Source: a virus. From it: DNA of 64,000 nucleotides. The notes under the pieces were generated by a model. That model made no database searches. It was not told the origin of the DNA and saw only the letters and a list, made by a program, of their open reading frames with translations. The stretch is from the IMG/VR virus record IMGVR_UViG_3300045988_105030. One strand, 5' to 3'. The position numbers were made by a program, and so were the translations under genes. Below are positions 2,108 to 62,648 of this stretch, piece by piece (positions within the stretch are counted from its first letter, which is position 1; each line of letters opens with the position of its first letter).

Positions 2108-3857
2108 ACTGCGCGGACTTTCCAACGCCACCTACCCGGAGATTTTTAAGCGGTTTCAAGCACTTTCCGAAAAGTACGGCGATATGCCCGCCGGTGCGCT
2201 GGCCAGCGCCTTCAGCCGGGTGAGCGCGTCTGCCGCCAACCGGAACAATCCCTACATTCAGAATCGGCGGGTACAGGCCGTTTCCTCGCTGCCCAAGGAT
2301 TACAGCAAAAACCGCGTGGCGGAGATGCTGACAAACCCCATGGGCAACGAGCAGAGCTTGCGGCAGGTGGAGCATGGGCTGGAATTTACCGCCTATCCTC
2401 TTTTCCACACCCGGAAGATGTACCAAGACCTGCTGACCTATCACAGCTATATTGCGCCGGAGTTTACCGACAAGGACACGGCGAAAAACGACGAGTTCTG
2501 GCGGGAATGGAAATTGCTGGAAAAACTGCGGCGTAAGCTGGACCCCAAGACCACAGCCCACCAGTTGGCGGGACAGGCGGTGCAGGAAGGCAAGGTTTTC
2601 TACTATCCACGCGTCAGCGTGGATAAGCCCCACAACAAGGTGAACTACGCCTTTATGCAGCAGCTGCCCAGCGACTGGGTGAAGATCGTGGGCTTCAACA
2701 GCGTGTCGAAGTACACCGTGGCCTTTAACATGATGTATTTCATGCAGCCGGGGACAGACCCCTTGCAGTTCGGCGACCTCTTTAAGCCCTATTGGGATGT
2801 ATTTTCCCGCGTGACGGAGCGCGGCGCACCCAAGGGGACGGGTACGCGGTTTGTGTACGCCGCCAAAAACCGGGTGGATATGGGACTGCTGGCGGAGATA
2901 CAGCGGGGGGGCGGATTTGGCGAGGATGAAACGCCGGATGTGTACTACCAGAACGGGCAGTACTTCTACTGGGTGACGCTGCCGGTGGACAGCGTGTACA
3001 CCTTTGAGATCGACGACGCGCAGACGTCAGTGGTGTCGCCGCTGACGGGACTGTTTCTGTCGCTGATCCAGATTGCACAGTATGAGCAGATTCAGCTGGA
3101 GCTGGTACAAAACCCCCTCATTTCCCTGCTGACAGGCGAGATCGAGTACAGGGACGATGACACGCGGCAGAGCGCTGACGCCTATAAGCTGAGCAACGCC
3201 GGGTGGGAACTCTTTAGGACGCGATTCTATGACGAGCTGGCGGCAAACAACACAAACGGCATCGGCTGGTATGCCGCACCGCTGAAAAACATGGAGCTGC
3301 ACCAGCTATCCGAAGCGCCGGGAGCCACCAAGATCAGCACAGCCGGGTACGGCTACACCATGGCGAAGGCGGGACTTTCCGCCCTGATCCCCACCAGCGA
3401 CGAGCCGAGGGCGGGCGTGGCCAACATCAGCTTGCAGATCGAGAGCCGCTTTGCCGAGCAGATTTACCGCTGCTACGAGCGGATGATGCGGGGCATCATG
3501 GACGGTATGAACCTGAAACATTCGTGGCGATTTTCCATGTTCGGGAATCTGGCGGAGGATGAAAAGACCTTTGAGAACGCACGGCAGGGCATGACGCTGG
3601 GCATTCTGCCCCAGACGATGATTTACATGGCCATGCTGGACATGAGCGTGATAGACGACCTTGCCATGAGCTTTGCCATCAAGGAGAGCGGCATCATGGA
3701 TATGCGCCTGCCGCTGGTGACCAGCTACAACGCCAAGCAGAGCGAAAGCGAACTGCCCCCGCAGGCGGCACACGACATGAACCCCGGCGGAAGACCCGCC
3801 GCCGACAAGAAACCCGGCACGGAGGGGCAGGAAGCCTCGCAGGACGCCGGGGATTAA
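2079..3857 (+). CDS. portal protein
   Basis: 592-aa ORF immediately after terL, preceded by SD GAAGGAGG. Size, position and acidic C-terminal tail are typical of portals. Confidence 0.65.
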   Translation: MDETKNLTTELRGLSNATYPEIFKRFQALSEKYGDMPAGALASAFSRVSASAANRNNPYIQNRRVQAVSSLPKDYSKNRVAEMLTNPMGNEQSLRQVEHGLEFTAYPLFHTRKMYQDLLTYHSYIAPEFTDKDTAKNDEFWREWKLLEKLRRKLDPKTTAHQLAGQAVQEGKVFYYPRVSVDKPHNKVNYAFMQQLPSDWVKIVGFNSVSKYTVAFNMMYFMQPGTDPLQFGDLFKPYWDVFSRVTERGAPKGTGTRFVYAAKNRVDMGLLAEIQRGGGFGEDETPDVYYQNGQYFYWVTLPVDSVYTFEIDDAQTSVVSPLTGLFLSLIQIAQYEQIQLELVQNPLISLLTGEIEYRDDDTRQSADAYKLSNAGWELFRTRFYDELAANNTNGIGWYAAPLKNMELHQLSEAPGATKISTAGYGYTMAKAGLSALIPTSDEPRAGVANISLQIESRFAEQIYRCYERMMRGIMDGMNLKHSWRFSMFGNLAEDEKTFENARQGMTLGILPQTMIYMAMLDMSVIDDLAMSFAIKESGIMDMRLPLVTSYNAKQSESELPPQAAHDMNPGGRPAADKKPGTEGQEASQDAGD

Positions 3858-59292: not shown

Positions 59293-59567
59293 TGGGCAAG
59301 CAGCATTTAAGCCGGGATGAACGGCTGATAATGAAAGGCAAGCTGCAAGGTACGCAGGAGTGCATGGACATGGTGGCGATGGTGCTGATGGACAAGTGCG
59401 GTTGGCACGTCTTTGAGGAGACAGAGGACTGCCGGGACACGTTGAGTATCGCGTACCTGTACAAATGTTTGGAAAAGATCACGCAGGAGATCAACGAAGG
59501 CCGCATCAAGCGGAAGCACATCAAGGACGTGCTGAAGGACGAGTGCGGCGTTGTGTTTGGAGATTAG
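59292..59567 (+). CDS. hypothetical protein
   Basis: ATG 59292 in a TGATG overlap. 91 aa. Confidence 0.45.
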   Translation: MGKQHLSRDERLIMKGKLQGTQECMDMVAMVLMDKCGWHVFEETEDCRDTLSIAYLYKCLEKITQEINEGRIKRKHIKDVLKDECGVVFGD

Positions 59568-59589
59568 GAGGTGACGCGCCATAAAGCAC

Positions 59590-62208
59590 TTGGGAGATAT
59601 TACAAATATCAACGGCGCGGAGATCAAACCGGTGTGGGTGGTGACGGGCGGCAGTCCCTGTCAGGACCTTTCCATCGCCGGGAAACGCGCCGGTTTGGCG
59701 GGAGCGCGAAGCGGCCTGTTTATGGAGCAGGTTCGTATTGTAAAAGAAATGAGGGAGGCAGACAAAAGGAATGGACGGACAGGTGCGGAAGTACGCCCGC
59801 GCTACATGGTGTGGGAAAATGTTTGCTTTGCCGGGGAAACGCTGGTGGCTTGCAAGAGCGGCTATAAGCGCATAGACCAAATTGCCGTGGGTGATGAGGT
59901 AAAGACCCACACGGGGATGTACCGCCCGGTGGCGAAGGTCATGCGGACGAAAAATCAGGCAGTGGTACGGCTGAAGGTCAGCGGCGCGGAGGACATCATC
60001 TGTACGCCAAATCACCCGCTGTACATCATGGAAAAGGTGTACGCAAACGCAGGGAAAAAGCAGGGGCGCAGTTTCACGAAACCGAGATGGGAAGCCGCTG
60101 AGAACCTGAATGACAGGTGCATGGTGGCGTACAAGCTGGACGAACCGACACTGCCGGACAACTTTATCACGCCGGACGAGGCGTGGGCGCTGGGACGCTA
60201 TATGGCGGATGGGAGCGTGGACTTGAATCGAGGAACGCCGCGTATATTTATCAGCGTGGGCAACGCAAAACTGGAGGAGGCAAGGGAGCATTTGCACCGG
60301 TTGCCATATCAGATACACGAGAACGCACCCCACGCCACAGCGACCAATATGGTGTTTTCGTCACAGGAGTTTTACAACCTTGTTTCCGGCGTTGGAAAGG
60401 GAGCGGGGAACAAGCGCGTACCGCCCTTCGTGTTTGATTTGCCGTTCAGTTTGCAGAAGTGCGTACTGAACGGGTATATCAGCGGGGACGGGTACATCAG
60501 GGAGCGCGGAAAGTGCAGGGAGTTGTGCTGCGTAACCGCCAGCAGAGAATTGGCATACGGCATCGCCCGGATGATACGGAATGTGTACCGGGTCGGCGCC
60601 AACATCTCCGTAAGAAAACCAAAAGACGGGAGAATGGGCGGACGCATTATCAAGGCAAACTATCCCTGCTATTGCGTGACGGCGGCACTGACCAATAAAA
60701 ACAGCACGGGCGTGTGCAAAGACGGCTTTGTGTGGCAGATGGTAAAAAGCGTGGAGCCGTGCAGAGAAAAGGCGACCGTCTACAATTTGAGCGTTTGGGA
60801 GGATAACACCTATGGAGCAAATGACGTTGTGGCCCATAACTGCGGAGCATTCAGCAGCAACAGAGGAAAAGACTTCGCAGCCGTGCTGGAAGAAATTGCG
60901 CGTATCGCAGAACCAGGATTTTCTCTATCTGGACTGCCGGAAAAGTGGAAATGGACAAAAGCAGGAGCCATTGACGGTGATGGGTGGTCTATCGCTTGGC
61001 GAACTCACGACACTAAGGACTGGGGAAAAACCATCCGAGACAGCCGTACAGGAAATGTTATCCGTTTGGGGACCCCACAGCGTCGCCGAAGAATCTCGGT
61101 TGTCGCAGATTTTGGAGGTGAATCCGCCGCCCAAATACAATTTGACCGCGAAAGCGTGTCTGGGCATCCTGCGGAGAGCGGAGCGGCGGGGGAAGGCCTT
61201 GCCGGAGCGGCTGAAAGCGGTTTTAATCCGGCAGTCGCAAGGAACCTCACCGCAAGAGCGGACGGAAGCCCCTGCGCCGACAGAGGCCCCAACATCGTAT
61301 GCAGTCCGCATCAGGGGGGCTGTGACGGAGGAGGAAAAGGCGCGTTAGTGCAGACGGAGAAAAGCGGGACGCTGGGAACGGGGAACGATCAGACGATATT
61401 CTGCATGGCCACACAGCAAGGCGGCGCGGAACTGCGGACAGACGACCGAGCGCCCACATTGACCGCAGCGGCTGGCATGAGCGGGAACAATCAGCCGGTG
61501 GTGGCTATCCCCATCAACGACAAAGCTACAAGATGGCAGGGCGGCGGAGAGAGCCGCAACCACGATGGCAGCGGCAACGGTCTTGGCATCGGCAAAGAGG
61601 GCGACCCGTCACCCACGCTGACCGCTGGCGACCGCCACGGGGTAATGTGCATGACACCGTGGGAGTCACAAAGCCAGCGCGTGTACGATGGTAACGGCGT
61701 TTCGCCTACGCTCAGTTCCCGTGAAAACAGTGGTCTGAACCGCGAAGCTGTGCTATGTGCTGGGTTTAAGGCCGGACAGGGCGCACAGACATACCCAGTG
61801 CAGAACATGGTGGTGCGCCGATTGACGCCGTTGGAATGTACGCGCTTGCAGGGATACCCGGACGGATGGGTGGACATTGGTGACTGGACGGATGAGAAGG
61901 GAAAGAAACACAAGGACGCGGACAGCCCGAAGTACAAGGCGCTGGGAAACTCCATCGCCCTGCCCTTCTGGGACTGGATGCTACGGCGCATGGCGCGGTA
62001 TCTGCCGGAGGGCGCGACGCTGGGGAGTTTGTTCGACGGCATTTCGGGGTTTAATGTCTGCTGGGCGAGAATACACGGAGCAGAGTGCTGCCGGTGGAGT
62101 TCCGAGATTGAACAATTCCCTATTGCCGTGACCAAAAAGCATTTCGGCGATGAGAAGTCAGGTGAGAAAGGCGACTGGGATATTTTTTCAGGAGGAATGA
62201 CATGGTAA
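59590..62208 (+). CDS. DNA (cytosine-5) methyltransferase, intein-containing, circularly permuted motif order
   Basis: Motif order along the ORF is as follows. III/IV: LGDIT...GGSPCQDLS. VI: WENV, interrupted by the intein. VIII: PQRRRRISVVADFGG. IX: VRRLTPLECTRLQGYPDGW. X: ALGNSIALP. Then I: SLFDGISGF. Then II: WSSEIEQFPIAVTKKHF. The start codon is uncertain: TTG 59590 lies 18 nt from the SD. Confidence 0.7.
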   Translation: MGDITNINGAEIKPVWVVTGGSPCQDLSIAGKRAGLAGARSGLFMEQVRIVKEMREADKRNGRTGAEVRPRYMVWENVCFAGETLVACKSGYKRIDQIAVGDEVKTHTGMYRPVAKVMRTKNQAVVRLKVSGAEDIICTPNHPLYIMEKVYANAGKKQGRSFTKPRWEAAENLNDRCMVAYKLDEPTLPDNFITPDEAWALGRYMADGSVDLNRGTPRIFISVGNAKLEEAREHLHRLPYQIHENAPHATATNMVFSSQEFYNLVSGVGKGAGNKRVPPFVFDLPFSLQKCVLNGYISGDGYIRERGKCRELCCVTASRELAYGIARMIRNVYRVGANISVRKPKDGRMGGRIIKANYPCYCVTAALTNKNSTGVCKDGFVWQMVKSVEPCREKATVYNLSVWEDNTYGANDVVAHNCGAFSSNRGKDFAAVLEEIARIAEPGFSLSGLPEKWKWTKAGAIDGDGWSIAWRTHDTKDWGKTIRDSRTGNVIRLGTPQRRRRISVVADFGGESAAQIQFDRESVSGHPAESGAAGEGLAGAAESGFNPAVARNLTARADGSPCADRGPNIVCSPHQGGCDGGGKGALVQTEKSGTLGTGNDQTIFCMATQQGGAELRTDDRAPTLTAAAGMSGNNQPVVAIPINDKATRWQGGGESRNHDGSGNGLGIGKEGDPSPTLTAGDRHGVMCMTPWESQSQRVYDGNGVSPTLSSRENSGLNREAVLCAGFKAGQGAQTYPVQNMVVRRLTPLECTRLQGYPDGWVDIGDWTDEKGKKHKDADSPKYKALGNSIALPFWDWMLRRMARYLPEGATLGSLFDGISGFNVCWARIHGAECCRWSSEIEQFPIAVTKKHFGDEKSGEKGDWDIFSGGMTW
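59824..60840 (+). mobile_element. intein (339 aa) with LAGLIDADG homing-endonuclease domain
   Basis: Starts CFAGETLV immediately after ENV. Block B ICTPNHPLY. Dodecapeptides WALGRYMADGSV and LNGYISGDGYI. Ends VVAHN, followed by +1 Cys (CGAFSSN). Confidence 0.8.
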
Positions 62209-62648
62209 ACGACGCTTTGTTTTCCAGCGATAAGAATTTCTGGGAAACGCCGCAAAATCTGTTTGACGAGCTGGACGCGGAGTTCCACTTCACGCTGGAC
62301 GCTGCCGCCAGTGATGGCAACCACAAGTGTGCGCGGTATTTCACGCAAAGCGATGATGGTTTGCGGCAAAATTGGGGGGGCGAAACGGTGTTTTGTAACC
62401 CGCCCTACGGGAGCAAGGAAACCGGGCTGTGGACGGAGAAGTGTTACCGCGAAGGACAGAAACCAGGGACAACGGTGGTGCTTCTGATCCCCGCCCGGAC
62501 TGACCGTGCCAGTTTTCACGACTACATTCTGGGTAAAGCAGAGATACGTTTTCTGCGCGGGCGGCTGAAATTCGAGCTGGACGGAAAGCCGATGGGAACG
62601 GCACCGTTTCCCAGCATGATTGCCATTTGGCGAGGAGGAATGACATGA
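62202..62648 (+). CDS. phage Dam-type DNA N6-adenine methyltransferase
   Basis: 148 aa. FWETPQNLFDELDAEFHFTLDAAAS and the catalytic motif FCNPPYG. Its ATG overlaps the end of the C5 methyltransferase. Confidence 0.8.
   Translation: MVNDALFSSDKNFWETPQNLFDELDAEFHFTLDAAASDGNHKCARYFTQSDDGLRQNWGGETVFCNPPYGSKETGLWTEKCYREGQKPGTTVVLLIPARTDRASFHDYILGKAEIRFLRGRLKFELDGKPMGTAPFPSMIAIWRGGMT

Follow-up and report, generated by a model that had tools for sequence, protein, structure and literature searches.

A probable natural circular permutation of a phage C5-cytosine methyltransferase between motifs II and III, with a candidate overlapping gene in the +1 frame

Introduction

The DNA analyzed here, referred to as the window, is a stretch of 64,000 nucleotides of viral origin (IMG/VR record IMGVR_UViG_3300045988_105030). 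The gene under study lies near its 3' end on the plus strand, where an open reading frame (ORF) of 872 codons was listed at 59590..62208; the same frame is open from 59575, directly after a TGA at 59572-74. The ORF encodes the motifs of a C5-cytosine DNA methyltransferase, interrupted by an intein, and is followed by a gene for a Dam-like adenine methyltransferase. C5-cytosine methyltransferases are a textbook example of fixed motif order. The window gene departs from the linear I-to-X order of the family, with motifs III-X first and motifs I-II at the end. The ORF very likely encodes a single-chain enzyme that is a natural circular permutant with its break between motifs II and III. A second reading frame, offset by +1 and embedded in the same gene, is the most surprising feature at this locus.

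Gene layout and motif order

The coordinates of the features are collected in Table 1. Every C5 motif was found exactly once in the ORF. The hallmarks of the catalytic family, GGSPCQ, WENV (separated by the intein from GAFSS) and QRRRR, are present and were invariant in 38 relatives, and the motifs of the S-adenosylmethionine (AdoMet) site are present as LFDGISGF (I), SSEIE (II), LGDIT (III) and GNSIALP (X). Against Pfam profile PF00145 the ORF scored 82.5 bits, above the curated cut-off of 22. Profile positions 46-111 were matched by ORF residues 5-83, positions 274-315 by the IX-X region, and positions 4-50 by the last 63 residues, which on their own gave a weak match (E=0.042). By these profile coordinates the chain therefore opens near position 46 of the profile and closes near position 50. 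The departure from linear order concerns chain topology and not the inferred fold.

An earlier note, made from the sequence alone, had described a single ORF with III-X followed by I-II, and this description was borne out by the motif positions, the Pfam coordinates and the BLASTP comparison given below; each peptide that it quoted was found at its place in the translation. Its statement that the termini differ from those of the M.BssHII type also held, the N-terminus lying at motif III and motif VIII preceding motif IX.

Table 1. Features of the methyltransferase locus in the window (positions are those of the whole stretch; TRD, target-recognition domain)
Feature	Position	Strand	Basis or remark
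Shine-Dalgarno AGGAGG	59566..59571	+	read from sequence
Probable non-canonical start ATA	59581..59583	+	alternative TTG 59590-59592
Predicted permuted C5-cytosine methyltransferase coding sequence, including intein	59581..62208	+	III-IV-V-VI-(intein)-VII-VIII-TRD-IX-X-linker-I-II
N-extein (motifs III-VI)	59584..59823	+	Pfam PF00145 positions 46-111; alignment to M.HhaI 15-112
Motif III KHLGDITNI	59584-59610	+	
Motif IV VVTGGSPCQDLS, catalytic Cys in GGSPCQ	59638-59694	+	
Motif V RSGLFMEQVRIVKEM	59707-59751	+	
Motif VI PRYMVWENV (WENV ends 59823)	59797-59823	+	
Intein, 339 residues	59824..60840	+	
C-extein start CGAFSS... through motif VIII	60841..61119	+	
Embedded +1-frame ORF, 122 codons from ATG 60980	60980..61348	+	frame 2, open from 60791
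Motif VII region, GWSIAWR	60982-61026	+	
Motif VIII PQRRRRISVVADFGG, contains PQRRRRI	61075-61119	+	
Linker and variable target-recognition region	61120..61815	+	modules present/absent among relatives
Motif IX RRLTPLECTRLQGYPDGW	61816-61869	+	Pfam profile 274-315 (IX-X)
Motif X GNSIALPFW	within 61924-61992	+	Pfam profile 274-315 (IX-X)
Fusion linker ARYLPEGA, native C-terminus (after X) to native N-terminus (before I)	61993..62016	+	
Motif I TLGSLFDGISGF	62017-62052	+	
Motif II WSSEIEQFPIAVTKKHF	within 62089-62145	+	
20-residue tail after motif II, the new C-terminus	62146-62205	+	
Stop TAA of the methyltransferase	62206-62208	+	
Dam-like N6-adenine orphan methyltransferase	62202..62648	+	Pfam PF05869 E=9e-27; PADLOC orphan MTase E=1e-49

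Evidence for the permuted order

The intein was removed before comparison with the canonical-order enzymes of Streptococcus phage Javan105, Terrisporobacter phage TPDSL_ph1, a Monoglobales phage and a Ruminococcus phage. In its native order the protein gave two BLASTP high-scoring segment pairs (HSPs) against the canonical phage relatives, residues 3-476 matching subject residues 49-495 and residues 476-520 matching 6-54. After de-permutation, in which the last 73 residues were moved to the front, a single HSP was obtained (11-531 to 6-477). Against M.HhaI the de-permuted sequence again gave one stretch, which covers residues 15-112 and crosses the junction without a gap; HFGDE is paired with NFGE and KHLGDIT with KPEGDIT, placing the break at about M.HhaI residue 57 (NFGE/KPEGDIT). 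The chain is therefore broken in the loop that connects motif II to motif III, and no part of the enzyme is missing or present twice. This alignment by BLASTP and by motif, which had been proposed earlier as a check, thus confirmed the junctions against both the canonical phage relatives and M.HhaI.

Relatives were searched among 5.8 billion proteins, with sources in ENA, Logan, JGI and NCBI. Motif I was at the N-terminus in none of the 120 best relatives from this search. These proteins start at or just after M-x-HLGDI, or were called from an upstream or frame-shifted start. Their C-terminus, ...AVTKKHFPEEE or similar, is preceded at a distance of 40-60 residues by motif I; for two of them it is at least motif II that stands near this end. 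The databases label them simply 'DNA cytosine methyltransferase'. A query of 136 residues spanning the junction (IX-X-linker-I-II) retrieved 676 clusters at 50% identity with E<=1e-30; the best 150 of these were all matched in one collinear stretch, with motif I at most 90 residues from the C-terminus in 133. In IMG/VR, relatives are encoded by 194 viral stretches, from which 80 loci were kept, and all 80 were collinear with the permuted query.

The ratio of nonsynonymous to synonymous polymorphism (pN/pS) was calculated over 64 unique loci and was 0.23 for the I-II segment (pS 0.65), 0.25 for IX-X and 0.64 for the linker from X to I. The C-terminal I-II segment is under purifying selection, as constrained as IX-X. 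In an alignment of 38 sequences, motifs I and II showed no variation at G, S, L, F, D, G, I, G, F, W, S, E, I and E. The earlier claim of a complete enzyme with each motif once is supported by this selection and by an order common to the close relatives.

An identical protein of 858 aa (called from a GTG start) was found on two contigs of about 66.7 kb from different samples, with the same neighbours and different break points; in these contigs, L101 (66,734 bases) and L102 (66,726 bases), the gene stands at different offsets. Differing break points are expected of a circular phage genome, and the pair suggests that the window derives from a circular gut phage genome of about 66.7 kb. The pair speaks against the misassembly that the earlier note had named as a possible undoing of its reading, and the permuted order is real and not an assembly artefact. 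A genome scan for the host gave only four hits, all in metagenome-assembled genomes (two uncultured Clostridia, one Oscillospiraceae and one labelled Staphylococcaceae), so the host range is known roughly.

Start codon, intein and neighbouring genes

In 79 sequences (the window and 78 related loci) the Met position of M-[KVIRL]-HLGD is ATG in 26, GTG in 41 and ATA in 12, and AGGAGG always stands 8-9 nt upstream of it. ATA was found at this position in two different upstream contexts. TTG 59590, given in the earlier note as the nearest in-frame start after the Shine-Dalgarno sequence, is 18 nt from that sequence. ATA 59581 is probably the likelier start because it occupies the exact ATG/GTG position of the relatives at the same spacing; initiation there would be weak and non-canonical.

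The insert directly after ENV of motif VI has the features expected of a class 1 intein with a LAGLIDADG endonuclease: Cys1 (CFAGETLV), TPNH in block B, the end VVAHN/C and two LAGLIDADG motifs (LGRYMADGS and LNGYISGDG). Intein_splicing was matched at 41.1 bits, and Hint_2 and LAGLIDADG_3 were above threshold in Pfam. Cys at 60841-60843 is the +1 extein residue. Where relatives lack the intein the sequence is WENV[VP]GAFSS, and the window reads WENV/C-GAFSS, so that Cys stands where those relatives have Val or Pro. Other intein-bearing relatives are P0003, P0017 and P0099 (by Pfam) and probably L063, which has an ORF of 928 codons. A LAGLIDADG intein at a conserved site of an actinophage orphan methylase has been described (Gosselin et al. 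2023, PMC9957025). Those inteins are in another methylase family and in other hosts, whereas the window intein follows ENV of a C5 enzyme in phages of gut Clostridia.

The ATG of the Dam-like gene overlaps the end of the C5 gene (ATGGTAA). About 2.5 kb beyond it lies an N6_N4 methyltransferase gene (L101 7563 onward). With the C5, Dam-like and N6_N4 genes, the phage therefore carries at least three methyltransferases. The neighbourhood is a replication module with DnaB, DUF1064 and the Dam-like enzyme.

Variable region and recognition modules

The stretch that separates motif VIII from motif IX contains three modules with a PTL[TS] core, at 61444-61476, 61603-61632 and 61696-61725, and other modules besides. 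Such modules come and go among the relatives, and one is common to the window gene and Vibrio phage 24. In multispecific enzymes of the SPR/phi3T type, each tandem target-recognition module gives one specificity. The several modules of the window gene suggest that its enzyme may recognize more than one target sequence, in which it would resemble the multispecific enzymes.

Six codons at 61297-61320, read as VCSPHQ, are an out-of-frame reading of a conserved SYAVRIR module. The frame is restored by a run of six G at 61314-61319, and relatives without the preceding module have seven. The same arrangement was seen in L010, L011, L014, L021, L024, L036 and L051, and looks like module shuffling with compensating frame changes.

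Embedded +1-frame ORF

The embedded ORF covers motifs VII-VIII and the following linker of the methyltransferase. Its frame encodes ...LSQILEVNPPPKYNLTAKACLGILRRAERRGKALPERLKAVL...; from ATG 60980 the translation reads MGGLSLGELTTLRTGEKPSETAV...SRLSQILEVNPPPKYNLTAKACLGILRRAERRGKALPERLKAVL and contains LSQILE..KYNLTAKACLGILRRAERRGKALP, with the peptides ACLGILR and LSQILEVNPPPK among others. In the intein-free relatives a longer version of about 160 codons is present, and this is interrupted by the intein in the window.

By tblastn the +1 peptide was found in 85 phage records. In eight canonical-order genes (those of Javan105, Vibrio phage 24, Pseudomonas phage zjk6, virus Rctr41k, P7 dmt, and Terrisporobacter, Monoglobales and Ruminococcus phages) the match is offset by +1 from the annotated methyltransferase frame, over QRRRR. 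Phage C5-methyltransferase genes of Firmicutes and Proteobacteria, P1/P7 dmt among them, have kept the ORF. When the same 77 codons were compared in these eight genes and the window, mean pairwise identity reached 0.49 for the +1 frame and 0.40 for the main frame. Among 70 unique related ORFs there was no +1 stop from -80 to +40 codons around QRRRR, against 1.6-9 per 100 codons elsewhere. In the 29 codons after motif VIII the main frame had a pN/pS of 1.48 and the +1 frame one of 0.25, as against 0.3-0.5 in the main frame and about 1 in the +1 frame of the flanking regions; codon-position diversity was inverted in the same stretch. Here it is the +1 frame, and not the methyltransferase frame, that is under purifying selection. 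An ATG in the +1 frame is present 16-44 codons before LSQ at every locus, mostly with a G-rich or GGAGG-like stretch 8-12 nt upstream. Taken together, the ORF is very probably a real overlapping coding region.

The peptide had no match in Pfam, NCBIfam or PADLOC and contained no C5 motif. In PHROGs the window version was not matched, the only match being phrog_16143 'DNA methyltransferase' for the Rctr41k version. No sequence match was obtained in PDB, and a Foldseek search against PDB gave nothing below E=3.8. In the AlphaFold2 model, confidence was confined to a pair of helices at residues 50-90. The product may be a small, helical, basic protein (putatively ...LSQILE...KYxLSxKACxGILRRAExRGKxLP...), and it could act as a partner or regulator of the methyltransferase, made via internal initiation or frameshifting. 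The idea that the peptide is an in-frame domain of larger proteins was rejected, as the database search gave only domainless ORFs of 63-170 aa; the fusions seen in Toutatis gp14, P0135, P0210 and P0270 are due to indels in G-runs.

A second coding frame inside a C5 gene is also known from M.EcoHK31I, in which the beta polypeptide is encoded in another frame within the alpha gene, contributes motif IX and belongs to the enzyme. The +1 ORF of the window differs in lying over motif VIII and in encoding neither motif IX nor any other methyltransferase motif. The fuller reading of the locus is that of a gene in three layers, in which a permuted methyltransferase carries within it a second, genuinely protein-coding gene at 60980-61348; this is held with confidence somewhat better than even.

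Frame changes in relatives

In about half of the 80 viral loci a TAGA is inserted directly after the catalytic Cys codon, 39 of them matching the core pattern (L011, L016, L019 and about 36 more of L010-L089, with the core at about locus position 3060-3090). The context is GGT GGT TCA CCT TGT TAGA CAG GAT, so that TAG follows GGSPC and the rest of the gene is shifted to the +1 frame. Two diverged 5' lineages share the 28-nt core, AGGTGGTTCACCTTGTTAGACAGGATCT, without a single difference, while synonymous sites in this stretch vary among intact alleles. The insertion may mark a site of programmed +1 frameshifting, having an SD-like (Shine-Dalgarno-like) element upstream of it and a stop where the shift would occur, or it may be a null allele that is spreading.

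Between motifs VI and VIII there are also recurrent frame changes in runs of G (TGGGGAGGG or GGGGGGG). They were found in L090-L092 (2624-4367; at least 24 contigs), in L001 Toutatis gp14/gp15 (2135-3546) and in P0135, P0210 and P0270, where they split the methyltransferase or fuse its N-terminal part, or its TRD and C-terminal part, to the +1-frame domain. In L090 the start of the +1 ORF overlaps, as ATGA, the stop codon of the fragment upstream of it. Changes of the G-run and TAGA kinds are frequent and may serve as programmed switches from one product to another. In the window copy both the TAGA site (59671-59679) and the G-run site near WGG are intact.

Comparison with known systems

Canonical phage enzymes have the normal I-X order, with the N-terminus (MSKELTLGSLFDG...) and the C-terminus separate. 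The closest of them for comparison, Javan105 QBX13763 and TPDSL_ph1 XAO13881, share 31-35% identity over the de-permuted length, similar motifs and recognition modules with the window protein, and also carry the +1 ORF over motif VIII.

Circular permutants of M.MpeI and M.SssI have been built in the laboratory (Slaska-Kiss et al. 2018, PMC5944983). In that study activity was much the highest in Class B, which has the N-terminus between motifs II and III, and cp62M.MpeI had an activity similar to that of wild type; a scan of 20,677 REBASE entries gave 27 natural permutants, each with its break in the variable region as in M.BssHII (PMC5944983). Type B was reported as absent from natural enzymes, and the authors, puzzled by this, suggested a possible penalty in AdoMet binding (PMC5944983). 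The window gene has the Type B arrangement, with a linker of about 8-15 residues between X and I. It shares with cp62M.MpeI and cp58M.SssI the termini between II and III and the order III-X, I-II, the native termini of those constructs being fused directly or by a short linker. The engineered enzymes are CG-specific laboratory constructs of single specificity, whereas the window gene belongs to a natural and abundant phage family and, unlike them, has a long modular recognition region and an intein.

The natural Type H permutants M.BssHII, M.Alw26I, M2.Eco31I, M.Esp3I and M2.BsaI are likewise single chains in which X is followed by I, and are thought to have arisen by duplication and trimming (PMC5944983). 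Their break is in the variable region, with IX-X before I-VIII, whereas the window gene is broken within the catalytic domain, between II and III. A sibling gene of the same lineage, P0134, is Type H-like, with its N-terminus in the variable region and IX-X ahead of I-VIII.

In plant DRM methyltransferases motifs VI-X precede I-V, with the break between V and VI. They too are natural permutants within the C5 catalytic domain, but are eukaryotic, of an unrelated lineage and broken at another point; their circular permutation is mentioned in PMC3934875. A literature search of incomplete coverage, with REBASE outside it, for a natural permutant with the II/III break or for an overlapping ORF in C5 genes gave nothing beyond PMC5944983. 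The window family is this missing natural Type B, widespread but apparently undescribed.

Interpretation and alternatives

The course of the chain can be predicted from the known C5 fold. The protein, translated probably from the weak ATA codon, would start at the motif III strand (HLGDIT), run through the Pro-Cys loop, ENV, QRRRR, the recognition modules, IX and X, and end with FDGISGF and SSEIE, the two elements that close the AdoMet pocket. The sequence itself shows the native C-terminus at the motif X helix joined to the native N-terminus at motif I by the short linker ...RRMARYLPEGA.... Since these two termini lie next to each other in C5-methyltransferases of known structure, the three-dimensional fold should stay unchanged. 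An active enzyme would first need splicing of the LAGLIDADG intein that interrupts motif VI.

The enzyme appears to be an orphan phage methyltransferase, since there is no adjacent nuclease gene, the gene is in the replication module and a Dam-like orphan methyltransferase is next to it. Its role would most likely be the pre-methylation of phage DNA against host restriction, that is, anti-restriction.

Several observations weigh against a functional permutant. The window copy has ATA in place of ATG at its start. Ser replaces the second Gly of FxGxG in motif I (FDGISGF), a position that varies G/S/A among the relatives. Asn is found in the window intein at the block F position for Asp, the residue present there in many inteins. 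Many relatives have frameshifts in this gene, so the family is often inactivated or recoded. An AlphaFold2 model of the intein-free protein with 38 relatives had a mean predicted local distance difference test score (pLDDT) of 39, and because this model is uninformative the docking of I-II is inferred from homology.

Some of these points would also fit a decaying remnant of two tandem methyltransferase genes, consisting of the 3' part of one and the 5' stub of the next, without an active enzyme. The non-ATG start, the intein within motif VI, the 4-nt insertion after the catalytic Cys codon in about half of the related viral loci and the G-run frameshifts in other lineages would all be compatible with decay. 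The remnant is nevertheless unlikely: the frame is unbroken with each motif once, the I-II segment has a pN/pS of 0.23 at a pS of 0.65, a constraint equal to that of IX-X, the same architecture is present in hundreds of diverged clusters, and engineered enzymes of the same topology are active (PMC5944983).

It is very improbable that I-II forms part of another gene product encoded downstream, or is made as such a product by itself, and not as part of the methyltransferase chain. C5-methyltransferases split into two polypeptides do exist, as in M.AquI and M.EcoHK31I. Engineered fragments cut between II and III also complement each other (PMC5944983). In the window, however, there is no stop codon between motifs X and I, and the next gene, starting at 62202, is of the Dam family without C5 motifs, so that the separate downstream I-II gene considered in the earlier note was not found; the 64 unique C-terminal segments align continuously from IX through I-II, and in the permuted loci III does not come after I-II. 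An assembly or chimera artefact of this contig, for which only the general possibility in metagenome assemblies speaks, is of negligible probability given the identical gene with the same neighbours in two assemblies from different samples, the collinearity of all 80 loci kept from the 194 viral stretches, and relatives stemming from ENA, Logan, JGI and NCBI.

Origin of the permutation

The natural permutant most likely arose by in-frame tandem duplication followed by trimming at both ends. The sibling P0134 (L098:1637-3259) is a complete gene of 540 aa, present on three contigs, with the order TRD'-IX-X-I-II-III...VIII-TRD''. It carries a homologous X-to-I linker, RMAEYLPENAALGSLFDG, starts inside the variable region and runs from I-II straight into III-VIII, Pfam profile positions 5-129 being contiguous. 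One X-to-I fusion common to both genes, with the chain opened at two different places, is the outcome expected if a tandem dimer in one frame had been trimmed in two ways. P0135 was noted beside P0134 for its homologous X-to-I linker.

The earlier note had instead taken two 16-mers, at 59583-59598 and 62136-62151, as the scar of such a duplication. Both are present, with three mismatches, but a 16-mer pair with at most three mismatches is expected 0.47 times per shuffled window, which is chance level. The peptides K-H-L/F-G-D that they encode correspond to adjacent, non-homologous positions in canonical enzymes, NFGE / KPEGDIT in M.HhaI and KRMPEV / KHLGD in phage Javan105, and most relatives end in ...KKHFPEEE or ...KKWFGEE, unlike K-H-F-G-D. 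On these three grounds the scar was dropped; P0134 would support a duplication origin better.

Significance

On this evidence nature does use the topology with the break between II and III, and does so in a large family of gut Clostridia phages. P0134 and the Type B genes provide a concrete sequence set for testing the duplication-and-trimming model. Annotation based on motif order and screens in the style of REBASE can mis-call or truncate such genes, for which gene callers picked three different starts. Should the +1 ORF be expressed, methyltransferase genes would conceal a phage gene that is widespread and had so far escaped annotation.

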